The notes under the pieces were generated by a model, which had not been told where the DNA came from, made no database searches, and worked only from the letters and a program-made list of their open reading frames with translations. Made by a program: the position numbers and the translations under genes. Below are positions 7,201 through 38,504 of a stretch of DNA of 64,000 nt, piece after piece. Position 1 is the stretch's first letter; each line of letters opens with the position of its first letter. The stretch comes from an uncultured Candidatus Berkelbacteria bacterium (GTDB lineage: Bacteria > Patescibacteriota > UBA1384 > UBA12157 > JAENIV01): positions 542,131 through 606,130 of the forward strand of contig OY969116.1 of the NCBI GenBank assembly GCA_963698075.1. The letters are read 5' to 3'.

Positions 7201-7228
7201 AATTTTATTCCTAATTTACGAATTCATG

Positions 7229-7382: not shown

Positions 7383-7388
7383 AGTATT

Positions 7389-9037: not shown

Positions 9038-9048
9038 CCTTATTTCCC

Positions 9049-11387: not shown

Positions 11388-11391
11388 CTCT

Positions 11392-11470: not shown

Positions 11471-11523
11471 TTCAATAAACAGGAAGGAATTTTGCGGGGC
11501 ACGTGAATCTCAACTTATTTTAT

Positions 11524-16691: not shown

Positions 16692-16708
16692 TTCCCCTCT
16701 TTATTACT

Positions 16709-18817
16709 TTATACCATCGGTAAACTAAAATGGAAGGTTGAACCTTTGCCTTCAACCGACTCCACCCAAATCTTCCCGCCTTGTCTTTCCACCAATTGCT
16801 TGGTAATCCAAAGGCCTAAACCAGTGCCGGTAATTCGGCGAGTTTTATCGGTTTTAACGCGATAAAATTTTTCAAATAATTTTTCCTGACCTTCTTTAGA
16901 AATCCCCATGCCAGTATCTTCGACCGCGACAATCACTTCGTGCTCATTTTTACCCAAGGCGACAGTGACGCTGCCGTGCTCGGTATATTTAATGGCATTG
17001 CCGACCAAATTAATTAAAATCTGCCGCGTTCTTTCTGGATCGGCTTTGACTTGTTCCATTTCGTGTTTTTCAAATCTTAATTGTAAATTTTTATCTTTGG
17101 CTTGAATTTGGAGCTCTTTGACCACTTCCTCAATTAATTTAACAATGTCCATGGGAATTGGTTTGAGCTCAATTCTCCCCTGCTCAATCCGGCCGACATT
17201 TAACAAATCATCAACCAAATCGGCCAAGCGCTGATTGATTTTGATAATTTCTTCAATCATTTCTTTGAGTTCGCCTGATATCGGTCCAGCATCTCCTGTC
17301 AAAATCATATCCAAATAACCCTTAATCCCGGTAATGGGCGTCCGGAGTTCATGAGTAGCAATGGAGATAAGTTCCTGTTTCATTTGCTCGACTTCCAACT
17401 CATGGGTAATGTCGCGGAAAACGACAATTGCTCCCATTACTTTGTCATCGGCATCGCGCGTTGCCGCCACTGAAAGGTAAGCCGGAAAAAGGGTCCCGTC
17501 CCTCTTTTTAAGATAGATTTCTGATAAGGCCAGTTTTTTGCCGTCGGTCAAAACTTTAGGAATGGGCGAATCTTTGTCCTCAATCAGTTTGTTTTCTTTG
17601 TTCCATATCCCCAGTGTCTCTTTGATTGTTTTGCCGAGCAATTCCTCCTGTAAGTAACCTGTGATTTGTTCGCCGGAGGGATTAAGTAAAATAATTTTCT
17701 CAAGTTTATCGACGGCCAAAACCCCTTCGCCAATCGAGGATAAAAGGGCGGAGTCTTTTTTGCGTTCTTCTTCAATTTCCCTTAACATTTTCGAGGAAGT
17801 GACGACCACCGCTGCCTGTGAAGAAAGAATCATAAAAAGCCGCAAGTCATCCTCATGAAAATTGTTTTCTTTTTGGGAAAAAACATGAATTACGCCCAAT
17901 GTTTGTGATTTCACTTTCAAGGGGGCCGCCAAAATACTCTTTACCTCATTGAGACCAGCTCGGCGTAAAACTTGTGTCGTTTCTTCGTCGAGCCTGTTGA
18001 GCATTATGGGGATGCCTTTACAGAATGATTGGCCAGTGACGCCTTCATCGGGTCGGGTGCGAAAATCTTTCATTTGCGTCTCGGTCAAGCCAAAAGCCGG
18101 TTTCACCGCTCGGAGTAATTTTTCCTGGCCGTCATATAAAACTAAGGCTCCCTTGTCTGCACGAAGAGTCCGGGTGATTAAACCAATAATTGAAAAAAGA
18201 GTTTCTTCAAAATCAAACAAAGTCGAAATGCTTTTGGAAAGTTCGTTCAAAGCCTCGAGCTCGGCCAAGCGTTTGCGATTCTCTTCTAAAAGCTCGGCCG
18301 AACGGATACTGGCGATCGCCACAGCCGCTTGATTGGCAATCGAGGAAAATAAATTAACGTCTTTGGCGGCAAAATTTCTTTCTTTACGCGTAAAAACGCT
18401 CATGACCCCAATGGTTTGGCTGCGGACCATCATCGGCACTGTCACTAAAGAATGCATCGTCTCTGACAAGACTTTTGAAGCCACTTTTTCTTTGGTAAGA
18501 TCAGTGATTATTTTTGGCTGGCGTGATTTAACCACCCCCCAAGAGACTCCGCCCTTACTCGCGTGAATCGGCGGCTCTTTCATAATCTCTTCGCCCATGC
18601 CAATCGCCACTCGGCGAACTAAAAAATCCCCTTCTAAAGTCATTAAAGTCCCGGCATCAACATTGAGGGCCTTAAGGACCACTTCCAGTAAAGGTTCCCA
18701 AAGACTAGGAAGATCTTTGGCCTCGGCAATTATTTTTGAGATCCGATACCACGTGTCTAAAACAATTTTTAAATCATCCCCTGATTGTTCCGCCATTCCC
18801 CTCCTACTTTTTTTCAA
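16709..18817 (-). CDS. Sensor histidine kinase (GAF-GAF-PAS-HisKA-HATPase_c), cytoplasmic
   Basis: It has an H-box HELRTPITGIKGY and a G-box GTGLGLWITKQLVERQGG, with no TM segments. Confidence 0.85.
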   Translation of the reverse strand: MKKSRRGMAEQSGDDLKIVLDTWYRISKIIAEAKDLPSLWEPLLEVVLKALNVDAGTLMTLEGDFLVRRVAIGMGEEIMKEPPIHASKGGVSWGVVKSRQPKIITDLTKEKVASKVLSETMHSLVTVPMMVRSQTIGVMSVFTRKERNFAAKDVNLFSSIANQAAVAIASIRSAELLEENRKRLAELEALNELSKSISTLFDFEETLFSIIGLITRTLRADKGALVLYDGQEKLLRAVKPAFGLTETQMKDFRTRPDEGVTGQSFCKGIPIMLNRLDEETTQVLRRAGLNEVKSILAAPLKVKSQTLGVIHVFSQKENNFHEDDLRLFMILSSQAAVVVTSSKMLREIEEERKKDSALLSSIGEGVLAVDKLEKIILLNPSGEQITGYLQEELLGKTIKETLGIWNKENKLIEDKDSPIPKVLTDGKKLALSEIYLKKRDGTLFPAYLSVAATRDADDKVMGAIVVFRDITHELEVEQMKQELISIATHELRTPITGIKGYLDMILTGDAGPISGELKEMIEEIIKINQRLADLVDDLLNVGRIEQGRIELKPIPMDIVKLIEEVVKELQIQAKDKNLQLRFEKHEMEQVKADPERTRQILINLVGNAIKYTEHGSVTVALGKNEHEVIVAVEDTGMGISKEGQEKLFEKFYRVKTDKTRRITGTGLGLWITKQLVERQGGKIWVESVEGKGSTFHFSLPMV

Positions 18818-19184
18818 TCGCCTTTTCTACCATCGCCACCACATCCCTGGAGCTGGTTTTGTATTTTACTAAATAATCCTTGACCCCCAGGCGTTTCGCT
18901 TCCTCAATAAAAATTTCCGAAGTGCCAAGATTGGTCAAAATCACAATCGGAATGTTGCGGGTGGTCTCCTCTTGCTTAAGGTTTCTAATCACGGCAAAGC
19001 CATCAATAGCAGGCATCATGATGTCCAATAAAATACAATTAGGTTTTTCCCTGGACGCTGCAGCCATGCCCTCACCACCAGAATAAGCTGCTACCACCTG
19101 ATAACCGTCGTACTCAAATTTTTTGGAGTACATCCGCACCAACACGACGTCGTCCTCAATAATTAAAATTTTTCCTTTAGCCAT
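18804..19184 (-). CDS. Stand-alone response-regulator receiver domain
   Basis: ILIIEDD...ILLDIMMPAIDG...K. Its stop overlaps the kinase start by 14 nt, indicating translational coupling. Confidence 0.8.
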   Translation of the reverse strand: MAKGKILIIEDDVVLVRMYSKKFEYDGYQVVAAYSGGEGMAAASREKPNCILLDIMMPAIDGFAVIRNLKQEETTRNIPIVILTNLGTSEIFIEEAKRLGVKDYLVKYKTSSRDVVAMVEKAIEKK

Positions 19185-19199
19185 ATAGCCTCCGGTTAG

Positions 19200-19613
19200 C
19201 TATCTCACTATCCCCTTCACTTTCTCCACGATTTGGGCCGGCGTCATATCCGATTTAACCAAATAATCAGCCGCTCCCATTTTTTGCCCCTTTTCTCTGT
19301 CTTCGACTGCTCCACCTAGATTGGTGAGAAGAATGACCGGAATATCTTTGGTTGCCGCGTCAGCTTTAACTTTCTCCAAAACCTGAAAACCATCTAGTTT
19401 CGGCAGCATCACATCCAAAAGAATGATATTTGGTTTGGGCGAGGCCTTAGCGAGCTCGTCTAAGCCGGCCTGGCCATCAAAAGCCGCCAAAACCTTAAAA
19501 CCTTCTTTTTCAAATTTCCGGGTGTACATGCGGATTAAGATTTGATCATCTTCGACCAGTAATATAATCTTCTGTTGCTCCATAAGACCTCCTAAATTTA
19601 TGTTAAAACTCAA
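19200..19613 (-). CDS. Stand-alone response-regulator receiver domain (likely true start at MEQQKIILLVEDD)
   Basis: LLVEDD...ILLDVMLPKLDG...K, with no output domain. Confidence 0.8.
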   Translation of the reverse strand: MSFNINLGGLMEQQKIILLVEDDQILIRMYTRKFEKEGFKVLAAFDGQAGLDELAKASPKPNIILLDVMLPKLDGFQVLEKVKADAATKDIPVILLTNLGGAVEDREKGQKMGAADYLVKSDMTPAQIVEKVKGIVR

Positions 19614-19699
19614 AACGCAAATGTCAAAGTAACAGCAAAAAATTAAAATGATTTTCTTTTATGCTTTTAGTTGTAGTTTTAAGTTTTGACATTTTAACT

Positions 19700-20440
19700 T
19701 TAAGTTTCCCTTTTTGGTAACGCCAAACTAAAAGTTGAACCTTTGCCCGGTTCCGAATGTTCCAGCCAAAGTTTTCCGCCTTGGGCTTCGGTTAAACGTC
19801 GGGCCAAATATAATCCTAAGCCGGTGCCTTTTTCTTGACCCGCCAAGGAAAGATTGCCTTTGGAAAAAATCTCAAACAAACGATCTTGATCTTCTTTTTT
19901 AATTCCAGTGCCAGTATCAGCCACGTCAGTAATCACCCAATTATTATCAAGACGATGAGAAACCTTAATTTGCCCGTTCGCGGGCGTAAATTTGACCGCA
20001 TTGGAAACCAAATTCATTAAAATTTCTCGGGCGCGGTCGGGGTCGGCTCTGACAAAAAGATCCTCGGAAGATGGCTGATACTCTAAAGCTAGTTGCTTTT
20101 CTTTGGCCGGGATTTGAAAATCGGAAACAATCATTTTGGACTCGCGGCTGATATCAACTTGGCCAATTTTTAGCGAAATTTTTCCTTCTTGGATCCGGGC
20201 AACCTTCATCATGTGTTCGACCAAACGAATCAATCGATCATTGGCAATGTAGGCTTGGGCGATAAACTCCTTAACATCGTCGGAAATTGGCCCAGCATCA
20301 CCTTCCAAAATCATTGATAAATAGCCCTTAACGCCGGTCATCGGCGTCCGGAGCTCATGCGACATCACGCTTAAAAACTCCTGCTTTTGGGCTTCCAAAA
20401 GATGTTTTAATTTCTGGATTCTTGCTTTATCTTCTTCCAT
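19700..20440 (-). CDS. Soluble histidine kinase core (HisKA + HATPase_c only, no sensor domain)
   Basis: SHELRTPMTGVKGY, plus N/G boxes GTGLGLYLARRLTEAQGG. Confidence 0.8.
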   Translation of the reverse strand: MEEDKARIQKLKHLLEAQKQEFLSVMSHELRTPMTGVKGYLSMILEGDAGPISDDVKEFIAQAYIANDRLIRLVEHMMKVARIQEGKISLKIGQVDISRESKMIVSDFQIPAKEKQLALEYQPSSEDLFVRADPDRAREILMNLVSNAVKFTPANGQIKVSHRLDNNWVITDVADTGTGIKKEDQDRLFEIFSKGNLSLAGQEKGTGLGLYLARRLTEAQGGKLWLEHSEPGKGSTFSLALPKRET

Positions 20441-20457
20441 TGTAATAGTTTAAAAGT

Positions 20458-21105
20458 TTATACCAGTCGTTCTGGGGTTCTTTTAAGGACTGTGATTCTC
20501 TCGACAACTCCCTTAACCCCGAAGCCACCCATGCCAGCCCTGAGATAAACATTGGGCATAACTGTTCTTGTATAGTAAGGATAATTACTACCCGCTTTTT
20601 CAAACTCTGATTTCAACTGGTCAGCTATTTCTTCATTTAAACCAAAGGATCGAAAAACCAAGTCACGATATTCATTTCGAAAATCTTCGTCCGAAACACC
20701 GAGACTCTTTGCTCCCTCAACCTGTTCATCAGTTGGCGTAAAATCATAATTGATTGGTTCTTCTCTTTTCCCTCTTTGCATTTTAACCGCTCCCTCAGCC
20801 ACCTGTGTCATTAAATCACTGAGCATCGCTAGGATTTTTGCTTGCCGGACATCATAGTTGGCTTCTGCCTGATCGCGTGTCTCATTCGCCAATTTGTCTT
20901 GGGTGGCGGCCATTTCTAACCACTGTTTCACCATAGGATTCTCACTTTGATCGGGGTCGCCTCCCGCCAATTCTCTGGCTTGGGTTCTAAAATGGGCCGC
21001 TAACGAAGCATTTACGTTTTGTTGCCTCGCTATTTCCTCGGCCTTCGTTTCGTCCTCTTCCCAGCCTGGTTGTTTTTCCATCGGGTGCCATTTTTCTTCT
21101 TCCAT
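20458..21105 (-). CDS. Hypothetical acidic protein, no recognisable domain
   Basis: A 215-aa ORF with an RBS, sitting between the kinase operon and ftsK. Confidence 0.4.
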   Translation of the reverse strand: MEEEKWHPMEKQPGWEEDETKAEEIARQQNVNASLAAHFRTQARELAGGDPDQSENPMVKQWLEMAATQDKLANETRDQAEANYDVRQAKILAMLSDLMTQVAEGAVKMQRGKREEPINYDFTPTDEQVEGAKSLGVSDEDFRNEYRDLVFRSFGLNEEIADQLKSEFEKAGSNYPYYTRTVMPNVYLRAGMGGFGVKGVVERITVLKRTPERLV

Positions 21106-21119
21106 TTTACCTCATTTCA

Positions 21120-23381
21120 TTAAGGATTATTTTGAATATTATCATCTTCAACCCCTGGTGGCTGATTAGTTGGCTGATTGGCTGGCGGGTAGTTGGACGG
21201 TGGAGGTGGTTCTCGGAATGGTTGATGCCAATCTCCTCGCTGGCGATAATCTGGTTGACCATACGGCGGTCGCTGGCTGCCATGTTGCCGCGAAAATTCC
21301 TCACCTTGCCTATTCGCCTCGCGGCGAAGCGGGCCGATAGACGGATTCATTGGCGTCCGGGCCTGTTGACGCTCGTGGTCTAAAGTAATTGGGTCAATCA
21401 TCACGTCGCGCGGTTTGGCCCCATCAGGGGGACCAATCACCCCTTCTTGCTCGAGCATATCAAGTAAACGCGCGGCGCGGGCATAGCCCACCCGTAACCG
21501 CCGCTGAAGCAAAGAGGCTGAGGCCTTGCCGGCCATGACGACCGTTTCTTTAGCATCATTATACAACTCATCTTCGGCCATCAATTCGCCGCTCAAACCT
21601 CTTTCCGAACCGGCCCGATAAGTCAAGACTGTTTCATCATAATTGGCGTAACCTTCACGCTTTAAGAATTCAGTGACGCGGTTAATTTCTTTATCGGTCA
21701 CCATCACCCCTTGGACACGTTTGGGCTTACCCAATTCATTGCCAATGTAGAGCATATCGCCGTTGCCAAGCAATCGTTCGGCGCCAGCTAAATCAAGAAT
21801 GGTGCGCGAATCAACTTGAGAAGCCACGGCAAAGGCGATGCGGTTGGTAATATTGGCTTTAATGAGGCCGGTGATGACATCCACCGATGGCCGCTGGGTA
21901 GCCACCACCAAATGAATCCCAGTGGCCCGCGCCATTTGAGCTAGTCTGACAATGGCTGCCTCAACCTCGTTGGCCGCTTGCGCCATCAAATCCGCCAACT
22001 CATCAATGAAAATGACAATGTAAGGCAGTTTGCCGTTGGGTGGATTGGCGTTATAGGCCTCAATATGGCGGCGATTAGTTTCTTGAAATAGACGAAAACG
22101 GCGATCCATTTCCGCTACCGTCCATTTTAACGCGGAAATGGTTTGGTCAACATCATGAATGACCGGCGCCAGTAAATGGGGGACGCCATTATAGGGCGTA
22201 AATTCCACTCTTTTCGGATCAACCAAAATTAGTCTTAAATCCGCCGGCGAATTTTGATACAAAAACGACAAAATCATCGCATTAATACAAACTGATTTTC
22301 CCGAGCCAGTCGCGCCGGCAATCAAAAGATGAGGCATATTTTTGATATCAACGACAAAAGGTGAGCCAGCGACATCGCGGCCAAGCGCGGTGGTTAAATT
22401 TGACTTGGAATTTTTAAAATCTTCAGTCTCCAACACTTCTCGTAAAGTCACCAAAGCCGGCACTTTGTTGGGAATCTCAATTCCCACCGCTGACTTGCCC
22501 GGGATCGGCGCTTCAATCCTGATTGGATGAGCGGCTAAAGCGAGGGCCAGATCATTGGTCCGAGCCGTAATTTGATTGAGCTTGACTGCTGGCGCTGGTT
22601 TAAGGGTATATTGAGTCACCGCCGGACCAATATTGACGTCGCCCATAGTCACTTCAATCCCAAAATCTTTGAGGGTTTTTTGAACAATTTCGACATTTTT
22701 AGCAATGTTGCCCGATGTTGCTTTCGAGGAATTTTGGTCTAATAAATCAACTGGCGGGAATTCCCAAATTTTCTGGCCGACGTGAGGCAAACTTTGTTGA
22801 TATGGCGATGTCGCCGCCGAACGTCGCCCCAAAGTCGCAAAAACCGAGGCCTTGGGCTCGTTGACTCTCACCCCGGGTTCCATGGAACCGCTACCGAGTT
22901 TTGCCCAAAGGGCTTTAATCGAAGTGTTAAAAGTAACCAATAACGAGACAATGGCTAAGACAAAAACTAAGATAAGTGAAGCGTAAATCCCCAGGAAACT
23001 CGCAAATAAAGAACGGACACCCGAACCGATCCAACCGCCCAAAGGCGACAACAAGGCCGGGACAAAAATGAGCGATAAAATTGTCCCCACCACCGAGATG
23101 GGTTTAACTTGGAAACGCGAGGGCAAAAGCAGGATCGTGCCAAAACCCGCGAAAATAAAGGGAATGAGGTAACCAACGATTCCCCAAAGATTGATAGTGG
23201 TGCGATAGAAAAACCGACCAAAAGAACCAGCTAAATTAAACCAGCCCAAGAAAATGAGCAAACCCAAAATCAGTAAGATAAAAGCGGCGATTTCCCGGGT
23301 CGTATCGGGGTTCATCGTCCAATCAAGGTTTTCCCATATCGAAAGTCTTTGGCCCTTTCTTCGATATTTGCGTCTGGCCAT
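21120..23381 (-). CDS. ftsK: DNA translocase FtsK/SpoIIIE
   Basis: It has N-terminal TM helices, a RecA-like motor with Walker A GATGSGKSVCINAMI, and a gamma wHTH domain, plus a Pro/Gln-rich C-terminal tail. Confidence 0.9.
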   Translation of the reverse strand: MARRKYRRKGQRLSIWENLDWTMNPDTTREIAAFILLILGLLIFLGWFNLAGSFGRFFYRTTINLWGIVGYLIPFIFAGFGTILLLPSRFQVKPISVVGTILSLIFVPALLSPLGGWIGSGVRSLFASFLGIYASLILVFVLAIVSLLVTFNTSIKALWAKLGSGSMEPGVRVNEPKASVFATLGRRSAATSPYQQSLPHVGQKIWEFPPVDLLDQNSSKATSGNIAKNVEIVQKTLKDFGIEVTMGDVNIGPAVTQYTLKPAPAVKLNQITARTNDLALALAAHPIRIEAPIPGKSAVGIEIPNKVPALVTLREVLETEDFKNSKSNLTTALGRDVAGSPFVVDIKNMPHLLIAGATGSGKSVCINAMILSFLYQNSPADLRLILVDPKRVEFTPYNGVPHLLAPVIHDVDQTISALKWTVAEMDRRFRLFQETNRRHIEAYNANPPNGKLPYIVIFIDELADLMAQAANEVEAAIVRLAQMARATGIHLVVATQRPSVDVITGLIKANITNRIAFAVASQVDSRTILDLAGAERLLGNGDMLYIGNELGKPKRVQGVMVTDKEINRVTEFLKREGYANYDETVLTYRAGSERGLSGELMAEDELYNDAKETVVMAGKASASLLQRRLRVGYARAARLLDMLEQEGVIGPPDGAKPRDVMIDPITLDHERQQARTPMNPSIGPLRREANRQGEEFSRQHGSQRPPYGQPDYRQRGDWHQPFREPPPPSNYPPANQPTNQPPGVEDDNIQNNP

Positions 23382-23442
23382 TTTCTAAATCCCTCCAATT
23401 AGTTCTATTATACCATCTTTTTAATGTGTCTATATGTCTTTA

Positions 23443-23540
23443 GAGGCCGAAGTGGTGTCCCGAGTGAAGTGGCGGCGTCCCGAACGTAGTTCGAGACAGG
23501 GATGGAGTGGGTGCCCGAGAGCGAGGGATACCACGAGGCC
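23443..23540 (+). repeat. GC-rich MITE-like dispersed element, copy 3 (intergenic, upstream of ftsK)
   Basis: gaagtggcggcgtcccgaacgtagttcgagacaggg...gggtgcccgagagcgaggg is nearly identical to the stretch within valS at 63645-63738. Confidence 0.75.
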
Positions 23541-23564
23541 GAATAATTATAATAATTAACGAAA

Positions 23565-23597
23565 AAATCGCCTTTTTCTTAGGCGATTTTTTCATCC
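23565..23597. terminator. Bidirectional rho-independent terminator hairpin
   Basis: aaaaaatcgcc-tttttctta-ggcgatttttt is a perfect stem with A/T runs on both sides. Confidence 0.55.
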
Positions 23598-23719
23598 GTC
23601 TCTCGATGAAATTCCACAAATTTGCCGGTTTCCGGATCAATTTGAACTTCGATTTGTTCCGGCTCTTTGCCAGTGTCAATCTCTTGGGAAATCTCTTGAA
23701 TTGTCTCGTTCATGTCCAT
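23579..23719 (-). CDS. Small acidic protein (46 aa; MDMNETIQEISQEIDTGKEPEQIEVQIDPETGKFVEFHRETDEKIA)
   Basis: Reverse-strand ORF ending in the terminator hairpin. It is below the ORF-track size cutoff and is a speculative call. Confidence 0.3.
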   Translation of the reverse strand: MDMNETIQEISQEIDTGKEPEQIEVQIDPETGKFVEFHRETDEKIA

Positions 23720-23775
23720 TTACCCCGTTAGATGCGTCAGCTATCTAACTGGGGCCCTCCATTTTTATATTTATT

Positions 23776-23997
23776 TTAAGCGGCTTTTCTTTCCTGCTCG
23801 CCGCGATGAAATCGGATAATTTTTTGCCCTTCGGGTGCATTAGGATTATAAGTTCCTTCTTCCGTTTCTGGCTCTTGGACAAGAACCGTCAGTGGTCCAT
23901 GGCCGGTCTGCCAGACCTCTTCATGGCCAGGCGATAATTTAATTCCCGCCCTTTCCATTTCTTCCAAAGTCATTACCCCTTTTCCTTTTTCTATCAT
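23776..23997 (-). CDS. Hypothetical small protein (73 aa)
   Basis: It has a strong RBS (aggaggg) upstream of the ATG. Confidence 0.45.
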   Translation of the reverse strand: MIEKGKGVMTLEEMERAGIKLSPGHEEVWQTGHGPLTVLVQEPETEEGTYNPNAPEGQKIIRFHRGEQERKAA

Positions 23998-24131
23998 GCT
24001 CCCTCCTTGAGAGCTCCTCCTTAATTCAGGAGTATTAAATTATTGTAACATAATTTTCGCCGAAAGTCAAGGAGAACGAAAAGTCCTGGCTCGGTTGGCC
24101 AGGACTCGGAAAGGTTCGATCAGCTCGAAAG

Positions 24132-24932
24132 CTAAAGTGGGGCGATGACCATCTGGGTATAGCTGGCCTTCAAGGGAGGAAGTCGGATATCGCCGTACTC
24201 ATCCTCGTGGGTGACCTTGGCGCGGTGGTAGCGTCCGCCGACAAGATAGCCGCGGATCCCGGGAGAGATCTCGATGCCTGCAAGGCGCTTGACAACCTCC
24301 GGGAAATGGGCGCCTTTGAGCAGGAGGTCAACCACTGCCATCCTGATCCGACTTTCGGTCACCGCGCAAAGAAAGCCAAACTGCCAGAGGGGAAGACCCG
24401 GACAAGCCTCAAACTCAATCACCAAGGCAACACGAGTGTTATGCTCGACCTCATCGATTGCCAGTCTCTCCTTACCCAGGACAAACCATTCGTATCCGCA
24501 GGTTTGCCACTGCACCCCTTTGTTAATCCATTGGATTGTTGGTCTGCCTGTCCACCGATGGGTATAGACGGCCCAACCAGGTCCAGCATGATCGGCCGGG
24601 CCAATCTCATTGCTGGCGAAGGAAAGGAAGATGAGAATGGGAGAAAGACAACCGACAATCACTGCTCGAGCTAAGTCATCAAGATCACCTGAGCTGGCGG
24701 CCACAAGGAAACAGACTGTCGTACCGACCACTAGACCGGCGCAGATGAGGTCGACCAGCAAGCTCATTCGAAACCGAGTGAGCAGCAGTTTCTCATATCC
24801 GGGCAGATTGCTCTTGGTAACCATGTAGAAGAGTCGATTGAGATAGATGTACCATGTTGCCACCACAGCGACGAGCGCAACTAGCATGATTACGGTGGAC
24901 ATTGTTTCCCTCCCTGGGTAGGTTCCTGGCAA
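24132..24932 (-). CDS. Hypothetical polytopic membrane protein (GC-rich island)
   Basis: A 266-aa ORF with about four TM helices in the N-terminal half. GC is about 55%, against a backbone of about 40%. Confidence 0.45.
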   Translation of the reverse strand: MPGTYPGRETMSTVIMLVALVAVVATWYIYLNRLFYMVTKSNLPGYEKLLLTRFRMSLLVDLICAGLVVGTTVCFLVAASSGDLDDLARAVIVGCLSPILIFLSFASNEIGPADHAGPGWAVYTHRWTGRPTIQWINKGVQWQTCGYEWFVLGKERLAIDEVEHNTRVALVIEFEACPGLPLWQFGFLCAVTESRIRMAVVDLLLKGAHFPEVVKRLAGIEISPGIRGYLVGGRYHRAKVTHEDEYGDIRLPPLKASYTQMVIAPL

Positions 24933-25052
24933 GACATCCCAGATGTTCGTAAGATATCATTTTTTCTCTTTTTAGTCAACAACCGGCAGCGCGATTGAGA
25001 TTACAGAAACACGCCCTGGATCAGAGCGTGTTGAGAAAGTTCAATGTGAAGC

Positions 25053-25529
25053 TCAAATATAATGGATGCCGCGGGCATCCATGAAGACCCGCTGTTGAGA
25101 GTGGATGCTTTCCAAGAGAACACAGCTGGTGATGTAAAGGAAATGTTGTTGCTCGCCGATTTCGTCTTCGCTTAACGACCTTTTACCAGCAAGAATATCC
25201 TTGATAATGGCCCGGAAAGTCCTTGCCTGACGCGGCCAATCGCGAGGGTCAAATAACTCTCGTACGTTTTGACCCGCCTCCAAGAAGCGTTCGGCGCGCT
25301 CATAATCCTTAAGCTGTTTAGGGCTGATTTCCGTCAGCTTGTGAACTCTAAGTGAATGCAATAGCAAGGCGCAGAGTTGGCTTGCCACCGCAAGCATCGA
25401 TTTGACGTCAGGCAGGAATTGACCGTCTTCGCCCAAATGCTTGCCTCGTCGGATGTACTCCAAACCACAGACGCCGTTGTTGGCCATAACATCTAGATCG
25501 TGGTCTTCGAACAGCCCGTCAAACTCCAT
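25053..25529 (-). CDS. Hypothetical protein
   Basis: 158-aa ORF with no recognisable domain. Confidence 0.4.
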   Translation of the reverse strand: MEFDGLFEDHDLDVMANNGVCGLEYIRRGKHLGEDGQFLPDVKSMLAVASQLCALLLHSLRVHKLTEISPKQLKDYERAERFLEAGQNVRELFDPRDWPRQARTFRAIIKDILAGKRSLSEDEIGEQQHFLYITSCVLLESIHSQQRVFMDARGIHYI

Positions 25530-25586
25530 GGTTCACCCCCTATGAGTGGTGACTAAATAATATCAAACTGAATTTCAAAAGCAATA

Positions 25587-25614
25587 ACAAAAAGCGCGAT
25601 CGAGGAATCGGCCA
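25587..25614. repeat. Cassette-boundary direct repeat, copy 1 (acaaaaagcgcgatcgaggaatcggcc)
   Basis: It is identical over 24 of 27 nt with 27572-27600 and related to 26131-26159. Confidence 0.65.
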
Positions 25615-25626
25615 CAAAATATCAAA

Positions 25627-25857
25627 TTATTTCTTTAATAGTCTTTTGAGTTCTTCTTTATTTATTTCGGCAAATTTTAAAATATTATTCAAGGTTCCGG
25701 GTCGAATAATTTTATGATTTGGCACAATCACGGTTTTCTTAATCGGCTTTAATTTTCTTAATTTAATATGACTGCCTCTTTGGCTGATAACAATAAATCC
25801 TCTTTTTACGAGGACTTTTATGAGTTCTTTGGCCGAGATTTGAGGTAATTTACTCAA
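25627..25857 (-). CDS. hicA: HicA-family toxin (mRNA interferase)
   Basis: KELIKVLVKRGFIVISQRGSHIKL...VPNHKIIRPGTLNNILKFAEI matches the HicA/YcfA fold signature. Confidence 0.7.
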   Translation of the reverse strand: MSKLPQISAKELIKVLVKRGFIVISQRGSHIKLRKLKPIKKTVIVPNHKIIRPGTLNNILKFAEINKEELKRLLKK

Positions 25858-25865
25858 GAATCTCC

Positions 25866-26081
25866 TTAATGGCCAACTTCTAAAGGCACGATAAATTCTT
25901 TAATCGGCGCCTCGGGTAATTCCTCATCTTCCAAATATAAATCAATCGCTTCTTGAATATTTTTTAGGGCTTCTTCAAAAGTATCACCTTGAGAAAAACA
26001 ACCCGGAAGAGAAGGCACCGATACTGAATATCCCCCGTCTTTTTCTTGTTCAAATAAAACCGCTAAATTTCTTACTTTCAT
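25866..26081 (-). CDS. hicB: HicB-family antitoxin (probable start MKVRNLAV; the ORF-track start at 26132 is an upstream extension)
   Basis: It shows HicB/UPF0150-like sequence (YSVSVPSLPGCFSQGDTFEEALKNIQEAIDLYLE) and sits immediately upstream of hicA. Confidence 0.6.
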   Translation of the reverse strand: MKVRNLAVLFEQEKDGGYSVSVPSLPGCFSQGDTFEEALKNIQEAIDLYLEDEELPEAPIKEFIVPLEVGH

Positions 26082-26130
26082 TTTAACTCCTAACCAAAAT
26101 ATAGCACAAAAATATAAAAAATCAAACATC

Positions 26131-26159
26131 ACAAAAAGTGCGAGCGAGATGTCGGCCCA
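26131..26159. repeat. Cassette-boundary direct repeat, copy 2 (degenerate)
   Basis: acaaaaagtgcgagcgagatgtcggccca. Confidence 0.55.
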
Positions 26160-26162
26160 ATA

Positions 26163-26861
26163 TCAATATCCCTCCCCAAGTATTTTTGAATATTTCCAGA
26201 GGCCGTTAAATATCGATTTGTATGTTTCGGCAATAACCCGATCCGATATTAAATACCCAATCCCTCCATATTGATCCGAAATCATTAACACGCATTCGCC
26301 GAAAACCGCCATTGTTCCGTGAAAAGGCAGGGTCTTTTGCCCCAGCCGAACAATGCGACCGGTTCTGATAATTGCTTCTTGGGAATGGTATTTATGATAT
26401 CCTTTGGAAACCGGCGACCTCAAAACCCTGATCATAATTTTTTTACTAATTGATTCTTCAATATAATTTTCAAAAAACCTGTTTCCCAAAAGTTCAGTCG
26501 AAGTTTTGGAATCAATGATCCAGTCAACTTTTCTGGATGGATTTTGATCCAAAGTTAGTAATATCGCTTCTTTTAAGTTTCTTTTCCCTACGAAACACAA
26601 AAAATTCCCAAATTTGAGGTTTTTATTGGGAAATTCCTTAATTTCTTCTTGATTTAATATCGAATAGGTTCTTTTATTATTAACAATTTTCTCCGATATT
26701 AAACCCGCCAAAACCAAGTGATCAATAAAATTATAAACGGTTGTCCTCTTAACTTTACTCGCTTCCGATATTTGACTGACCGTCCCCGTCCTAATTTTTT
26801 GAATCGCCTTATAAACCGCGATCTCTTTTGCCGATAGGTTAGTATAAATCTTTTTTCCCAT
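26163..26861 (-). CDS. TrmB-like wHTH transcriptional regulator (paralog 1 of 3)
   Basis: It has an N-terminal wHTH (LSAKEIAVYKAIQKIRTGTVSQISEASKVKRTTVYNFIDHLVLAGLI) and a C-terminal TrmB-type domain. It is paralogous to 36433-37221 and 42214-42984. Confidence 0.6.
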   Translation of the reverse strand: MGKKIYTNLSAKEIAVYKAIQKIRTGTVSQISEASKVKRTTVYNFIDHLVLAGLISEKIVNNKRTYSILNQEEIKEFPNKNLKFGNFLCFVGKRNLKEAILLTLDQNPSRKVDWIIDSKTSTELLGNRFFENYIEESISKKIMIRVLRSPVSKGYHKYHSQEAIIRTGRIVRLGQKTLPFHGTMAVFGECVLMISDQYGGIGYLISDRVIAETYKSIFNGLWKYSKILGEGY

Positions 26862-27060
26862 TTTCTTTCCTTAATATTATGAATAGATATTTAAGAGTGT
26901 TGTCTATATTTTAGACATCGTGTCTTAAAAAGTCAAGAAATATGGTTTGAGGGGATAAAATGGTTAACAATATTGACAAGTTTGATAATATATGAGGATT
27001 CGGCAGAAAGCGATTTAATCTGCCGAACGAACCTGAACAAGAAAAGAAGAGGAGAAAAAG

Positions 27061-27489
27061 ATGTCTGAGTTCGAGAAGGAAATCAGGAACCGAATAGCAA
27101 CAGTAAGCAAGAAGATGGAAGGGATATTGATGACCGCTCTTCAGCTTGCAAAACAATGGAGAGCTAAGGTAGAAGCTACTCCTCCACCGATCGGAGAGCA
27201 CCCCTGGAAGGTGCGTGAGGAGAAAGGACCATCTCCTCTTGAACAGGTCTTCCCGCAACTCTGTGAATGCGAGTTGGAGGTTTTTGGGATTTTCTTTGAC
27301 GCTCTAAGTTGTACTGATGAGTTGAGTCCCCAAACCATAGAGAGAATCCGAATCCTCGAACCGCTCTTTGAGCTCACACGCGATAAGATCCGCGTGGGAG
27401 ATACAGAACTTCTAATGGATGAGTGGAGGGAAGTTTGGAGCGCGCAAGAAAGGTTGGCAGAACGCCAAAGACCTGCACCGAAACCTTGA
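27061..27489 (+). CDS. Hypothetical protein
   Basis: It has a strong RBS (gaggagaaaaag-ATG). The overlapping minus-strand ORF 26911-27258 lacks an RBS. Confidence 0.45.
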   Translation: MSEFEKEIRNRIATVSKKMEGILMTALQLAKQWRAKVEATPPPIGEHPWKVREEKGPSPLEQVFPQLCECELEVFGIFFDALSCTDELSPQTIERIRILEPLFELTRDKIRVGDTELLMDEWREVWSAQERLAERQRPAPKP

Positions 27490-27571
27490 GACATCCGGGG
27501 CCGATTGCCTAAATCCCCGACTATTTAGTCCCGCTTGACTAAAACAACAAGTCCGGCGGGATTTCTTTATC

Positions 27572-27600
27572 ACAAAAAGCGCGATCGAGGAATCGGCCCA
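27572..27600. repeat. Cassette-boundary direct repeat, copy 3
   Basis: acaaaaagcgcgatcgaggaatcggccca. Confidence 0.65.
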
Positions 27601-28204
27601 ATATTACTTTAAATTGTTGACCGTCCGTCGCGCTTTTTGCGTTTAGCTACCCGAGAAGCCATGCCCCTCGAATAGAATTTTGATAGACAGACGAGAACAT
27701 CCTATAGATAACTAGGCGTCATCCATAAGAAAAAATGTCTGCCTCTTGCCGGGTTTTTGGCCCGCGACGCTCTTCGAAGTTTACGCTCGCTGGCCTAAAA
27801 GAAGGTGCTACCTCCGCCTAACCTTGCTTGGTCAAAGTTTAAAACGGCTCTGGATCATGCGGATTGGATAGCCATACAACAGCCATCCAAAAACCTTAGC
27901 TGAAGGGTCTAAATGTTAAGAATCGCGAAATGCCGATTTAGTGATGATCGGGGGAACGGCGCGGGACGAAATTCAGGATTGACAGTCGGCGAATTTCCAG
28001 ATTAGCATGCGATTATTAAAAAACGGCAAGAAGGAAAGATACGAAAAACCCTCCTACATTTTCTTCTGGCCATTTTGCTAAAGTACTTTTGTTATTTTTA
28101 TCATAGCATGGATTTTGGCTATTGTCAATTCTCGCATCTTATCGCGGGGTCTTGACAAATGAAAATATTGTATTAGGATACGCCATTTAAACCTTATTAT
28201 AACG

Positions 28205-28756: not shown

Positions 28757-30364
28757 TCAGGCCTGGACCAGCCTCGCGAGCCCTGTGCCGCGACGGCGCT
28801 TGGCGATCTCGTCCGCCCCTGGCAGGAAGATATCGGCCTCGCCGAGCCCCAGGAAACGAGAGACCGTGTCCACCAGGTGGGCCTTCTCGCCCGCGGCAAC
28901 AGCGAAGTGATGGACAGTGGTCTTCCACTTCCCGTCGACGCCCAGGACGAGTGCCTCTTCGAGCTCATCGAAGGTGGCATCGTCCACGCCCACGTAGAAG
29001 TGGGTGCCCAGTGTCATGGGGCCGTTGACTACTAGCGCCTCAAAGGCAGCGAGCGAGAAGCTGACGCCGGCCGCGCTGTTCCGGTTGCAGAGCCGGGCCA
29101 GCGTCATTGGCGTCCCCTTCTCGAAGTTCCCTACACCATCGAGGAAGGCGTAGGCCGGCCGCGAGGTCGGGATGATCCAGCCCTGCCTGGCGACGCAGCG
29201 GGTGCAGTTGACCGAGGGGAACGGCCCGCAGTGCCAGACCAAGATCCCGATGATCTTTCCGTCATCGAGGATCACCGTGATGGTGATGTCCGCGAACATC
29301 GGCGGTTTGCCACAAGGGTCGAGGGCCTGAAGCATCATCATCGAGAGCAGGCCACCCCTGTCGGTCTCGCAAGCGACCGGCACGCCGTGGCGGAGCAGCT
29401 CACCGCCAACCATGCAGAGCATGAGCTGGTAGTTCTCCATGCACGCCGGCCAGCAGTTGTGGGTCAGCCCGTCGAGGTCGTACCTCAGGCAGAGTTCGAG
29501 CTCCGCGATGATCGCCGCGGCGATCCGTCTGGCCGCCTCAGGCGGGATCTGGCTGAGATCGATGCCGCGCACCTGCATCGCCTGACACTCTGCCTCGAGC
29601 ATCGGCTGGTCGGGGTCCTGAAGCAGGCTGACCACGCGTCCGAACAGCTCGACCTGATCGATGGGGACCACCTCGACACCGAACCGCGTCCCCAGGACCG
29701 CCGGGCTGCATTCGATCGCTTCGAAGGTGGGCTGGTCGCCGCCGATCTGGCCGATGCGCACGCCCCGCGACATGTTCCGTACTGCCCTAGCTGCGGCGAC
29801 GAAGTCGCGGAACTTGGCAATCTCCTTCTGGCTGCCGGGCTGGCTCTGGCCAACGTAGTCATAGTGGTAGACCCCGTAGTCGGCCACGAGCTTCGAGGCG
29901 GGCTGGAATCCACACCAGGCATCGGTCTCGCGCGTGCCGTCGGTGTTCGGGTAGCCATCGTAGGGCGCGAAGAGCAACACCGGTAGGCCGAGCTCCTGGG
30001 CGAGCACGGCGATTTCGTGCTCGCAGCCGTAGTTGCCGAAGCCCACCTCGAGCGCATCGGCACCCTTGAGCTTGAGGTCCGCCGCCAGGCGCAGCACATC
30101 TGTTCCCGGAGAGATCACACCGCCATCGATGACAGTGATGTCCTGGCGGCAACCAAGCTCTGCGAGCCTGGCTGCGTGTCGCTGGCCCGGTGCCTTCTGG
30201 CTGAAGACCTGCCGCGAAGCGGTCACCCGCACCAACCCGAGAGGCCACTGGGTACGCCGACATTCCTTCCACTGTCTTACCAGTTCTTCTGAACGGGTTT
30301 GCGTCGCCACGACTTTCACCTCCTCGGTTACCTCCAGGCTCACGCCTGTGAGGGGGACTGCCAA
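28757..30364 (-). CDS. L-fucose/L-arabinose isomerase family protein (COG2407-like)
   Basis: A 535-aa protein of about 62% GC with many spurious overlapping ORFs. The assignment rests on overall resemblance to FucI/AraA-like sugar isomerases and is uncertain. Confidence 0.4.
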   Translation of the reverse strand: MAVPLTGVSLEVTEEVKVVATQTRSEELVRQWKECRRTQWPLGLVRVTASRQVFSQKAPGQRHAARLAELGCRQDITVIDGGVISPGTDVLRLAADLKLKGADALEVGFGNYGCEHEIAVLAQELGLPVLLFAPYDGYPNTDGTRETDAWCGFQPASKLVADYGVYHYDYVGQSQPGSQKEIAKFRDFVAAARAVRNMSRGVRIGQIGGDQPTFEAIECSPAVLGTRFGVEVVPIDQVELFGRVVSLLQDPDQPMLEAECQAMQVRGIDLSQIPPEAARRIAAAIIAELELCLRYDLDGLTHNCWPACMENYQLMLCMVGGELLRHGVPVACETDRGGLLSMMMLQALDPCGKPPMFADITITVILDDGKIIGILVWHCGPFPSVNCTRCVARQGWIIPTSRPAYAFLDGVGNFEKGTPMTLARLCNRNSAAGVSFSLAAFEALVVNGPMTLGTHFYVGVDDATFDELEEALVLGVDGKWKTTVHHFAVAAGEKAHLVDTVSRFLGLGEADIFLPGADEIAKRRRGTGLARLVQA

Positions 30365-30558: not shown

Positions 30559-32280
30559 TTAAACCTCGATGATGACCGGTATCACCATTGGCCGTCTTTC
30601 TGTTTCCGCAAATAAGAATTCGCCCATCTCCTGACGCAGCGCTTTTTTAATAAAGTCCCAATTGGCCGGGTATTTTTCATTGTGTCGAGCAAACATTTTT
30701 TTAACTTCCTGACGGGCTTTGTAAACCAAATCTTCGCGTTGGCGCATATAAATAAAACCGCGAGAAATTATATCCGGGGAGGTGACAATTTTGCCGGTTT
30801 CGTGATCAACGGTTAAGATAACCACGAAAATGCCGTCTTTGGCCATTGCCTGACGGTCGCGCAAAACAATATTGCCGACATCGCCAACGCCTAAACCGTC
30901 CACCAAAACATAGGAGGCATCGGCTTTTTCTTGAGATAGCCGCGCCTTGCCTTGATAAATTTCAAAAATCTGACCATCTTCCATAACAAAAGTTTTTTCT
31001 TCCGAAATCCCCAATTCCTGCGCCAATCGGCCATGTAAAACAAGATGGCGAAATTCGCCGTGAATCGGCATAAAATTTTCTGGCTTAACTGATTCAATGA
31101 CTAATTTTAGTTCGTCCCGCTTAGCATGGCCTGAAGAATGGACTCTCTGCGTCTCGGCACCGTAATAAACATAGGCTCCAAGCCGAAAAAGATTGTTTAA
31201 ATTATCTTGAACTGTTCTTTCGTTGCCAGGAATCGCCGAAGCAGAAATAACCACCGTATCGCCTTTTTTAATGTGGACCTGCTTATGTTCGCCGCTGGCC
31301 ATCCTCGTTAAGGCCGAATATTCCTCGCCTTGTGAGCCGGTACAAAGCAGGACTAATTGACTATCAGGAATATTAGCAATCCGGCGGTTATCAACAATGA
31401 TGTTCTGAGGTACTTTCAAATATCCCAAATTCATGGCAATGTTAATTGCCTTATCCATCGAGCGGCCAAAAACTGCCACTTTCCGATTAGAACGCAAAGC
31501 CGCGTTAAGAACTCCTTGGATACGATCTAAGCTTGAAGCAAACGAGGTCACAATGATTCGTCCTTTGACCTTCCTAAAAATCGAGGTAATCGTGTCGTGG
31601 ACAACACTTTCGGAAATGTGACTAGTTTTATATTCAACATTAGTTGATTCCAAAAGGAGTAATTTAACATTTTGGCTCCCCATCTCCTTAAGTCTAACAA
31701 TTACTTTTTGCGATTCTTCTTTGTTGGGATCAAGTCTAAAGTCGGAAATATGGACGACTTTACCTTCAGGGGTGTCAATAATTAAACCAACATCATCCAA
31801 AAAAGTGTGGGAAAAAGGCATAAATTCAATTTTAAAAACGCCCAATTGTAAATGGTCGCCAGCTTTAACCACCCGGATTTTCGGATTTTGTTCAAACTCT
31901 TTCATTTTGGCTTCAATATAGCCGGCGGTCAGTTTGGTCGCATAAATCGGCGCTGGGATTTTCGGCCAAATATAAGGTATCCCGCCAATATGGTCTTCAT
32001 GGCCGTGGGTAAAAATAATTCCCCGGATTTTGTCTTTCCGCTCTTCTAAATAGGCGATATTGGGAATAATATAATCAATTCCCAGCATCTCGCCGCGAGG
32101 AAACATGATTCCGCAGTCGACAATAATAATATCGTCGCCGTATTCGTAAATGGTCATGTTTTTGCCAATTTCGCCGTTGCCGCCGAGCGGAATAACCCGC
32201 AGTCGAGGGGTAAAGGCGCGGAAAATTTTTACAGGTTTGGTTTGGCTGCCTTGTTGAGGCAAAGTAGCAATGTTGTTCAT
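30559..32280 (-). CDS. rnj: Ribonuclease J (MBL/beta-CASP)
   Basis: It has HGHEDHIGG and beta-CASP motifs and an RNase J-specific C-terminal domain, in 573 aa. Confidence 0.85.
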   Translation of the reverse strand: MNNIATLPQQGSQTKPVKIFRAFTPRLRVIPLGGNGEIGKNMTIYEYGDDIIIVDCGIMFPRGEMLGIDYIIPNIAYLEERKDKIRGIIFTHGHEDHIGGIPYIWPKIPAPIYATKLTAGYIEAKMKEFEQNPKIRVVKAGDHLQLGVFKIEFMPFSHTFLDDVGLIIDTPEGKVVHISDFRLDPNKEESQKVIVRLKEMGSQNVKLLLLESTNVEYKTSHISESVVHDTITSIFRKVKGRIIVTSFASSLDRIQGVLNAALRSNRKVAVFGRSMDKAINIAMNLGYLKVPQNIIVDNRRIANIPDSQLVLLCTGSQGEEYSALTRMASGEHKQVHIKKGDTVVISASAIPGNERTVQDNLNNLFRLGAYVYYGAETQRVHSSGHAKRDELKLVIESVKPENFMPIHGEFRHLVLHGRLAQELGISEEKTFVMEDGQIFEIYQGKARLSQEKADASYVLVDGLGVGDVGNIVLRDRQAMAKDGIFVVILTVDHETGKIVTSPDIISRGFIYMRQREDLVYKARQEVKKMFARHNEKYPANWDFIKKALRQEMGEFLFAETERRPMVIPVIIEV

Positions 32281-35541: not shown

Positions 35542-36408
35542 CTACTCTTTCACTAATCCTAAGTACTCTTTTGCAATCGCAATATTAACCGGCCTCTGTT
35601 TGACCCCGCCAATTAATTTAGGGTTTAAACCACGGCTTTGCAGGGCCTGTTCAATCTGAGGTGATTGACTTTCAATTTCTTCATCAGTTTCGGCATCAAT
35701 CCTGACATCCGTTTTGGCCAAATTGTCGCATAAAAACAAGATGCCAATTTCTGTTTGAAATTCGGGAAAACCTGAAGCAATTTCTTGACAGGCCTGGCGG
35801 CACCCCTCACTTTGGGCGAAAGCAATAGTAAAACCTAATTCTGATTTCTTAGCGGCATCGCGCATTTTCCCGAGTTCGTAATGAAGCCCGGCACAACGGG
35901 CAATATAATCTACTTGACCATCAGTTAAACCATATGTCTGCTGTAATAAACCTCTAATTTCAGGATTTTCTCTGATAATACTTTCTGACTTGGCTTCATG
36001 GCCTTTGTAATCAGGTTCGAGCTTGCCATCTTTATCCTTAAAACCGCGGGCAAATTTCCCTAGATCATGTAAAGGGATGCTGGTTCGTAAAAGTTCCTCC
36101 TTAGTTTTGCCATCAATTTGACCAGATAATTTTGAGGCAACGGTCTCGGACAGGCCCCATTTTTGAAAGTATTCCTGCGCTTCAGTCCGATAAAACTCAG
36201 CAAACTTTCTCGTGTGAGTGATGATTCCGAACTGATGCCAAACGGCATCGTGTTCGACTGGATCGTCAGGGTTTTCCTTAAAATGAGCATTTTCTGGACG
36301 CTCCTCTATTAAACCAACGGCTAAACGAGGCAGCTCGTCCAACAGCCGTAAATCAATATCGGTCAAAGTTTCCCCAGGAGGGGTTGGTTCAGTCCCAAAT
36401 TTAGGCAT
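35542..36408 (-). CDS. HD-domain phosphohydrolase-like protein
   Basis: H...HD spacing (HQFGIITHTRKF ... IPLHDLGKF). Confidence 0.5.
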   Translation of the reverse strand: MPKFGTEPTPPGETLTDIDLRLLDELPRLAVGLIEERPENAHFKENPDDPVEHDAVWHQFGIITHTRKFAEFYRTEAQEYFQKWGLSETVASKLSGQIDGKTKEELLRTSIPLHDLGKFARGFKDKDGKLEPDYKGHEAKSESIIRENPEIRGLLQQTYGLTDGQVDYIARCAGLHYELGKMRDAAKKSELGFTIAFAQSEGCRQACQEIASGFPEFQTEIGILFLCDNLAKTDVRIDAETDEEIESQSPQIEQALQSRGLNPKLIGGVKQRPVNIAIAKEYLGLVKE

Positions 36409-38392: not shown

Positions 38393-38398
38393 TATCCA

Positions 38399-38426
38399 CC
38401 CCCGCCTTCCCAACGGAAGGCGGGGG
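38399..38426 (+). terminator. Strong GC stem-loop (possible terminator)
   Basis: cccccgccttcc-caac-ggaaggcggggg. Confidence 0.45.
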
Positions 38427-38504
38427 CAACTCCGAACTCTCAAGTTCCTTGAGGGCTGGGAAGTTGAAAATACACCGCCAGGATATCTGGCATAAGGAGA
38501 AAGA

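Follow-up and report, generated by a model that had tools for sequence, protein, structure and literature searches.

The stretch of DNA analysed here (64,000 nucleotides of contig OY969116.1, assembly GCA_963698075.1, from an uncultured Candidatus Berkelbacteria bacterium; hereafter the window) carries a variable interval between two conserved minus-strand genes, rnj, encoding RNase J (30559-32280), as the left-hand anchor and ftsK (21120-23381) as the right-hand anchor, and in this interval small gene modules are bounded by copies of a short direct repeat. Read along the minus strand, the array consists of a hairpin, an orphan open reading frame (ORF) together with the gene of a TrmBL2-like regulator, repeat copy 2, the hicBA toxin-antitoxin genes and repeat copy 1. 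The first-pass annotation of the region had described a direct repeat of 27-29 bp with a degenerate middle copy, and this repeat is real: the 27-mer ACAAAAAGCGCGATCGAGGAATCGGCC matches exactly at 25587-25613 and 27572-27598 on the plus strand, with a chance expectation of 0 (no match in 100 dinucleotide-preserving shuffles). By repeat finding the family is in fact about 36 nt long (ATCACAAAAAGYGCGAKCGAGRWRTCGGCCCAATAT) and has three members, all oriented on the minus strand. The distal copy 1 (25584-25619) directly follows the stop codon of hicA, shares an identical 27-nt core with copy 3 and ends in ...TTTTTGTTAT, as does its orthologue in a related locus (L036; related loci are designated by L numbers). 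The degenerate copy 2 (26128-26163) agrees with copy 3 at 31/36 positions, overlaps the TrmB-like gene at its stop codon and has a GATG variant that is also present in the hairpin of L003. Copy 3 (27569-27604) forms the resident 3' arm and U-tract of the hairpin, and an inverted partial fourth copy with which it pairs (TCGCGCTTTTTG, 27628-27639) had been overlooked in the first-pass annotation. A half-site profile run over the 64 kb recovered the three copies at E = 1e-6 to 2e-9 and nothing beyond them. The copies are spaced by 544 and 1441 nt, on which grounds a CRISPR array was dropped as a candidate. The arrangement is not an assembly artefact, because two Logan contigs of run ERR10755944 (L001 and L002) reproduce window positions 16685-27888 at 100% identity.

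The gene assignments of the first-pass annotation hold for all four ORFs of the array. The module between copies 2 and 1 is a HicAB type II toxin-antitoxin pair on the minus strand, in which the 72-aa antitoxin gene hicB (25866-26084; PF15919, 1.1e-13; counted from the ATG after an AGGAG ribosome-binding site) and the 76-aa toxin gene hicA (25627-25857; PF07927, 2.4e-16) are adjacent and 8 nt apart, and it has its own sigma-70-like promoter on the same strand (26098-26125; TTGATT-16-TGcTATATT), which is kept in L036. Exact-protein look-ups for HicB and for a 46-aa FtsK-adjacent protein returned no match. The TrmBL2-like DNA-binding protein (26163-26861, minus strand; PF01978, 1.8e-8) combines a winged helix-turn-helix with a PLD-like C-terminal domain; its AlphaFold model (predicted local distance difference test score, pLDDT, 80.5) matched TrmBL2 (5box) in Foldseek at E = 7e-10, and its C-terminal part matched NucT/Nuc proteins of the PLD fold at 1e-4 to 1e-5. 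No HxK motif was seen in the PLD-like domain. The idea that this protein is a hidden recombinase or nuclease was rejected on the absence of HxK from the PLD fold and on the best structural match being the chromatin protein TrmBL2, and from its model it is read as a regulator and not a recombinase. Divergent from it lies the variable 'payload' ORF, here a 142-aa orphan on the plus strand without a Pfam match (27061-27489), closed by a hairpin and T-run that read as an intrinsic terminator (27529-27568, plus strand). The divergent promoter region between the two contains a palindrome, TTCGGCAG-N11-CTGCCGAA (26999-27027), that is kept in L036 and L040 and is the probable operator of the TrmB-like protein. 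Promoter-like sites of their own were found for hicBA, for TrmB and for the orphan, and with the payload ORFs on the opposite strand the modules have mixed orientations.

Copy 3 and the inverted partial copy together form a complete, imperfect hairpin of 67 nt (27573-27639, minus strand), made of a 5' arm, a 20-nt loop AAYAATTTAAAGTAAWATTG and a 3' arm, and followed by UUUUUGUGAU. It folds at -17.4 kcal/mol as DNA (z = -3.25) and at -30.2 kcal/mol as minus-strand RNA (z = -4.7). The direct repeat is an exact counterpart of the hairpin's 3' half: it begins at the loop edge (AUAUUGGGCC...) and extends through the U-tract. Copies 1 and 2, which are without a 5' arm, form on their own at best a weak CGAU..AUCG mini-hairpin of 4-8 bp. 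The hairpin occurs in 9 related loci, with 5/18 predicted pairs maintained through two-sided changes, and its loop is near-invariant across the nine. The GC-rich base GCGCGA/UCGCGC and the UUUUUGUGAU tract that follows fit a Rho-independent terminator, and the consensus terminator scan did not list the hairpin, whose loop and interior are long. It is proposed here as an attachment site and as the putative terminator of the RNA upstream of it, and it would thus be the terminator-like 3' end of an unannotated structured RNA.

Upstream of the hairpin lies a conserved structured non-coding region (27640-28095, minus strand) that has the hairpin as its 3' end and belongs to no Rfam family. In the clade of the window it measures about 450-530 nt (L003 1416-1900; L036 7705-8218), and the three sequences support many helices, with 23/128 predicted pairs compensatory; the region may be a new large structured RNA of Berkelbacteria. 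A strong promoter-like site (TTGACA-17-TGcTATGAT; 28100-28128, minus strand), which agrees with 11/12 consensus positions and has the additional TG, points toward the non-coding region and the hairpin. About 20 nt after it stands a conserved hairpin with a U-run (28020-28074, minus strand), which is kept together with its CTTCTTGCCGTTTTTT tail in L003, L004, L036 and L040; this element could give a very short transcript, or it could be an attenuator before the structured RNA. In the sister clade (L005, L006, L010 and L008) a conserved TTGACA-17-TATGAT promoter is found about 210 nt upstream of the hairpin, and the RNA of about 210 nt, on the minus strand in all four (L005 8155-8372, L006 11760-11972, L010 9442-9683, L008 16632-16872), has 13/54 predicted pairs compensatory, four helices and the motif CUUAC[variable stem]GUAGG, which is conserved. 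The first of the helices holds a perfect DnaA-box-like TGTGGATAA; a replication origin (oriC) was dropped as an explanation, as there is only one TGTGGATAA box, in the RNA of one clade, and the GC skew has no switch in the window. Coding potential was likewise dropped, every frame of the region being broken by indels between relatives. Searches for tRNA and transfer-messenger RNA (tmRNA) found none in the window or in 7 loci, Rfam at the gathering threshold gave 0 matches in the same sequences, and relaxed Rfam searches of the hairpin region returned chance-level matches only (E >= 0.13). On these negative results the RNA is not tmRNA, RNase P, 6S, signal recognition particle (SRP) RNA, ROOL, GOLLD, OLE or HEARO.

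For the comparison with relatives, RNase J was used as an anchor and retrieved loci of Berkelbacteria and other Patescibacteria at 75-83% amino-acid identity, and the long contigs L036 and L040 were reached via TrmB homologues. A wider listing contained over 60 homologues of RNase J with at least 73% identity. The genes rnj and ftsK are neighbours in all RNase J-anchored loci, and the hairpin lies between them in all except L009. In L005, L006 and L010 a bare hairpin stands 40-60 nt after the own terminator of rnj in an interval of 1.0-1.3 kb, with no extra half-site copies and no cassettes, and these three loci serve as unoccupied reference sites. Different inserts occupy the same site in L003, L036, L040 and L008, so that the presence or absence of modules among relatives, which the first-pass annotation had suggested comparing, does vary. 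The hairpin of L036 (8219-8285) is followed by direct copies of its 3' arm at about 8805-8841, 10700-10717 and 11241-11280, which come after hicBA, after TrmB (with a 304-aa ORF) and after a 137-aa ORF, respectively. L040 has its hairpin at 8437-8503 and one copy (10698-10721) after a B12-radical-SAM gene and TrmB. L003, the sole match of the repeat in the Joint Genome Institute (JGI) metagenomes, is 73% identical to the window across the hairpin and the RNA region, with homology that breaks off precisely where the repeat ends on its outer side; unrelated ORFs are bounded there by a second, partial copy (638-657). Degenerate half-site copies are found in L008 (Berkelbacteria GW2011_GWE1_39_12). 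That locus also has a 93-nt direct repeat (15993-16085 and 16484-16576, 96% identical) that begins with the AAAAAGCGCGAA core of the half-site; a 98-aa ORF lies between its two copies, immediately ahead of the hairpin, which makes this another type of module delimited by repeats at the site. L043-46 and L047/48 have one hairpin, other genes and no extra copies.

All extra copies are located 3' of the hairpin, whichever the orientation of the locus. The segment made of the RNA and the hairpin is inverted relative to rnj and ftsK between two clades, and in L004, where the hairpin lies at 5012-5079, an inverted 18-nt remnant of the half-site (4535-4555) marks the opposite end of the segment, the arrangement that an inversion between two inverted half-sites would leave. 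A profile search for half-site copies outside the interval found none in stretches of 13-22 kb around it in relatives. The repeat, exact or degenerate, had 0 matches in the 185,579 species genomes of GTDB, 1 in the JGI metagenomes and, except for one chance match within a coding region, 0 in IMG/VR. In the sequences covered, further copies of the motif are therefore confined to the rnj-ftsK locus. The first-pass annotation had also placed the modules at the edge of a GC-rich insertion, which is only loosely right: a 535-aa ORF of 65% GC (28757-30364; window mean 45%; no Pfam match) does exist, 1.15 kb away, and is separated from the repeat by roughly 600 nt of conserved non-coding DNA and a 125-aa ORF. 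A homologue of this ORF at 34% identity, with a weak Fucose_iso_C match, adjoins RNase J at the same place in L047 and L048. The ORF is therefore a genuine occupant that the interval has in more than one genome, and no chimera.

The hicBA genes provide a case of an exchanged module. The segment of copy 2, hicBA and copy 1 (window 26163-25584) is 86% identical over 593 nt to L036 8253-8842, with homology that begins at ATATTGGGCCGA and ends at ...CGCGCTTTTTGTTAT and with unrelated flanks, so that the repeats mark the same module boundaries in both genomes, as the first-pass annotation had suggested. In the window hicBA is second in the array, after TrmB, and in L036 it is first, directly after the hairpin. 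HicA is 89% identical in amino acids between the two, and third-codon-position identity is 0.76 for both hicB and hicA, compared with 0.57 for rnj, 0.53 for TrmB, 0.51 for udg and 0.45 for ftsK. Because hicBA is at 0.76 and the core genes at 0.45-0.57, the pair was exchanged between the lineages after their split, and it was inserted next to different resident copies in the window and in L036. The cassette-like behaviour proposed at first is thereby borne out for hicBA, a discrete and exchangeable unit with the same boundaries, another array position and less divergence than core genes. More distant homologues (HicA 73-78% identical in L049, L052 and L053; TrmB 44% identical in L042) lie in unrelated loci without the half-site, and the repeat is therefore a property of the locus and not of the hicBA or TrmB genes.

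For the other module the picture is different, and the regulator with its orphan was not upheld as one mobile unit. By sequence comparison the TrmB gene and its promoter region are inherited vertically, and only the divergent payload ORF differs: the slot holds the 142-aa orphan in the window, the 304-aa ORF in L036 and the B12-radical-SAM gene in L040. The homology between genomes on the TrmB side stops about 20 nt before the payload start codon, just past the palindrome at 26999-27027. The window has three TrmB-like paralogues in its 64 kb, each with adjoining divergent ORFs (26163-26861 with 27061-27489; 36433-37221 with 37856-38928; 42214-42984 with 43140-44117); the divergent ORFs have no or weak Pfam matches and lie in DNA that is richer in GC (52-56% for the bins at 38-39 kb and 43-44 kb). 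This recurring pairing of a TrmBL2-like regulator with a compositionally foreign payload may reflect local control of acquired genes.

It is plausible, by analogy with known attachment-site arrays and with a probability of about 0.5, that the locus has grown by tandem accretion of small integrase-less cassettes at an attachment site at the 3' end of an RNA gene. The mechanism favoured, at similar odds, is a recombination catalysed in trans in which the half-site borne by the cassette recombines with a resident one. In this scheme the hairpin would act as the chromosomal attachment site at the end of the structured non-coding RNA locus, and small circular gene modules, each with one half-site copy, would recombine with a resident copy, which might be the hairpin itself or a copy already displaced from it. 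Each insertion would add one direct repeat, and successive insertions would lead to the present array; the modules encode no recombinase and would be either moved in trans by an enzyme encoded elsewhere or decayed remnants. The arrangement suggests that the recombination was site-specific and that it involved a recombinase, a circular intermediate and a crossover at a given position, and likewise that the non-coding region is transcribed and terminated at the hairpin. Site-specific integration with accretion is favoured because an intact RNA gene stands at one end of the array, the copies displaced from its 3' end are restricted to the 3' side, and relatives have either a bare site or different inserts. 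The direct repeats also appear to be the 3' part of a resident structured RNA locus.

Several observations weigh against such accretion. In agreement with the first-pass annotation, no integrase, resolvase or transposase was found by Pfam among the approximately 50 ORFs of the window; no recombinase was found in the rnj-ftsK intervals of L036, L040, L043 and L047 (precomputed Pfam, including PF00589), no cognate integrase in about a dozen distinct loci, and no phage or plasmid bearing a partner site (attP) when the hairpin was compared by BLAST with phage and plasmid collections. The displaced copies share no sequence with the resident site past the loop edge, which places any crossover away from the loop centre. 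A GAGCGA variant occurs in L040 in both arms of the hairpin as well as in the displaced copy, and also in the hairpin of L043, which points to duplication or gene conversion within a lineage and not to import. Several copies are truncated to different lengths (10703 in L036, 10707 in L040, 638 in L003), a pattern that sloppy or homologous joining would explain no less well than a crossover at a fixed point. Finally, the modules of 0.5-2.2 kb are far below the size of typical integrative elements, and much of the variability of the interval has no bounding repeats, for instance on the side between rnj and the RNA and in the 158-aa and 266-aa ORFs beyond copy 1.

Some of these points would be expected if no dedicated recombinase were involved and the half-hairpin copies were short homology tracts for RecA-dependent shuffling, deletion and insertion of modules, which could be aided by natural transformation or by homology-facilitated illegitimate recombination. 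This alternative, which is possible although held to be less probable than not, agrees with the lack of a recombinase at any locus examined, with the concerted, lineage-specific variants of L040, with truncations that vary in length and yet always keep the ...CGCGCTTTTTGT end, and with the type IV pilus/competence-like apparatus of the window (PilM/N/O and T2SSE/F, 1.9-11 kb); the inverted partial copy of L004, too, flanks the inverted RNA locus as recombination between inverted repeats would give. However, repeats of 27-36 nt barely reach, or fall short of, the length that RecA usually requires for efficient exchange, in two genomes the hicBA cassette has an exact left boundary, and neither the origin of the first half-hairpin duplicate nor the insertion on the 3' side only is explained. 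An unlikely further reading is that the site is an undescribed gene-capture platform of Patescibacteria, in which the hairpin and half-sites would be the recombination sites of a functional integron analogue with an unrecognised enzyme or a duplicating mechanism. One- or two-gene mini-cassettes, each with a single half-hairpin, could then be inserted, excised and reordered at the RNA terminator; the GAGCGA variant of L040 and L043 hints at a duplicating mechanism that copies the resident 3' arm with each insertion, and the TrmBL2-like regulator with a conserved operator before a swappable payload would be an expression and silencing module. It is still less probable that the copies are kept for their function, as terminator or insulator remnants that end the upstream gene of each module, with the module boundary as a by-product. 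Copies 1 and 2 do begin <=8 nt from the stop codons of hicA and TrmB, the full hairpin has a GC-rich base and a U-tract, and a half-site alone can fold the CGAU..AUCG mini-hairpin followed by UUUUUGU, but such a mini-hairpin is weak, neither copy 2 nor the truncated copies of L036 and L040 retain it, the consensus terminator scan flagged none of the copies, and function alone would not explain the 27/27 identity of copies 1 and 3 or the transfer of hicBA together with its flanking copies. A role as a weak terminator is compatible with either model of recombination and replaces neither.

Two further explanations appear very improbable. The first-pass annotation had compared the repeats to integron attC sites, and small self-contained modules, including a toxin-antitoxin pair, between short repeats, one of which belongs to a 67-nt imperfect palindrome, do recall an integron-like array on the chromosome or an attC cluster without an integron integrase (CALIN). 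This analogy did not survive and the explanation is largely refuted: there is only one full palindrome, as copy 3 has an inverted partner and the other copies are half-sites; the repeat as read has no R''/R' (GTTRRRY) cores; the modules have their own promoters and both orientations, in contrast to promoterless, co-oriented cassettes; no IntI is found in the window or in the homologous intervals of relatives; and the repeat is part of a resident conserved RNA locus found also in cassette-free genomes. As remote is a transcription-factor site, for example of the TrmB-like protein, or a genome-wide repeat of the repetitive extragenic palindromic (REP) or miniature inverted-repeat transposable element (MITE) type. 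The motif adjoins the gene of a DNA-binding regulator in three genomes, but the palindrome of the divergent promoter region is a better operator candidate, the two other TrmB-like paralogues of the window are without the motif, and the searches of the 64 kb, of the relatives, of the species genomes and of the metagenomes given above leave no copies elsewhere. The first-pass claim was to fail if the motif were a transcription-factor site or a terminator remnant spread genome-wide without relation to module boundaries; the motif does prove to be terminator-derived, being the 3' half of a terminator-like hairpin, and it is strictly tied to module boundaries. A pdif site is a 28-bp sequence related to dif, with two 11-bp inverted arms around a 6-bp spacer. 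A dif/Xer site or pdif module was dropped, the repeat being not internally palindromic and without dif-like arms, and the loop being without a TTATGT-type XerD arm.

With accretion at the RNA 3' end as the favoured reading, one of the closest precedents is provided by the tandem ssrA islands of Dehalococcoides, in which 20 bp from the ssrA 3' end are repeated, insertion is placed in the T-loop and 15 of the islands have no integration module (PMC3146451). Both systems have a single-copy structured RNA gene at one end of a region of high plasticity, short direct repeats of the 3' end of this gene between tandem islands, an inferred insertion point in a stem-loop, many islands without an integration module and a host with a small genome. 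In the Berkelbacteria locus, however, the target is an unannotated RNA with a terminator-like hairpin instead of tmRNA, the modules measure 0.5-2.2 kb as against tens of kb, the loci examined showed neither a serine nor a tyrosine integrase, and the repeat of 27-36 nt comprises the whole 3' arm and the U-tract. Site-specific accretion at gene 3' ends also has a precedent in cis-mobilizable elements (CIMEs; PMC5704250), integrase-less modules with attL- and attR-like direct repeats in tandem at one attachment site, which the decayed modules envisaged above would resemble; CIMEs are defined by a cognate integrative and conjugative or integrative and mobilizable element (ICE or IME) that supplies the integrase, whereas no partner element was found here. 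Arrays of tycheposons separated by partial tRNAs occur at tRNA and tmRNA genes in Prochlorococcus (10.1101/2020.12.28.424599). They have in common with the present locus a streamlined genome, islands beside an RNA gene, degenerate remnants scattered in the island and genes of the cargo or defence type, and they differ in carrying a tyrosine recombinase and replication genes where only cargo is found here. The ryeA/ryeB small-RNA locus of Salmonella reportedly contains an insertion hot spot, said to have been described by Balbontin and co-workers in 2008, and would be similar in that horizontally acquired DNA integrates repeatedly at a small-RNA locus and not at a tRNA; the DNA inserted there consists of prophages and islands that have integrases, not of mini-cassette arrays. 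Integrons and CALINs are somewhat alike in having small units, including toxin-antitoxin pairs, between repeats resembling recombination sites, in an order that may differ between strains, but the repeats here are half-sites of one resident hairpin and not self-folding attC sites, with neither IntI nor GTTRRRY. The locus works like an attachment-site accretion array, except that no integrase was found in the occupants examined. It also departs from the known arrays in being targeted to the putative terminator hairpin of an unannotated RNA and in the scale of its modules.

Other features of the window and its relatives were noted. A type IV pilus/competence-like cluster occupies 1933-12051, with PilM/N/O, a T2SSE ATPase, a T2SSF platform protein and several proteins with a prepilin-type N-methylation motif, and it may be relevant to DNA uptake as a route of cassette exchange. 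Defence-like genes are scattered in the window (35542-36408, 37224-37595, 39055-39564 and 53362-53958), the set comprising an HD/Cas3_HD-like protein, a PD-(D/E)XK nuclease, a PycTM protein (Pycsar effector-like) and an AbiEii-like nucleotidyltransferase. An element of about 81 nt occurs twice (23447-23527 and 63646-63726; 88% identity; 63% GC over a stretch of about 95 nt), one copy lying just upstream of ftsK; it has a conserved GUCUCGAAC...GUUCGGGAC hairpin and an outer stem that differs between the copies yet still pairs. In L042, another Patescibacteria contig, two similar GC-rich hairpins of about 50 nt (CTCGGAGG...CCCGAGAG; 3050-3330) lie downstream of the distant TrmB homologue and are unrelated to the half-hairpin repeat.

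In bacteria of the candidate phyla radiation, whose genomes are tiny, there has been little characterisation of mobile elements or of the ways in which genes are acquired. The rnj-ftsK locus is a concrete and repeatable site where related lineages gain, exchange and rearrange modules of one or two genes, and these modules include a toxin-antitoxin pair, orphan genes and a radical-SAM enzyme. The comparison also appears to uncover a conserved, structured and previously unannotated RNA in Berkelbacteria. If a recombinase does act on the hairpin, the terminator of a small RNA would constitute a new class of attachment site, and it would offer a handle for genetic tools in organisms that now have none.

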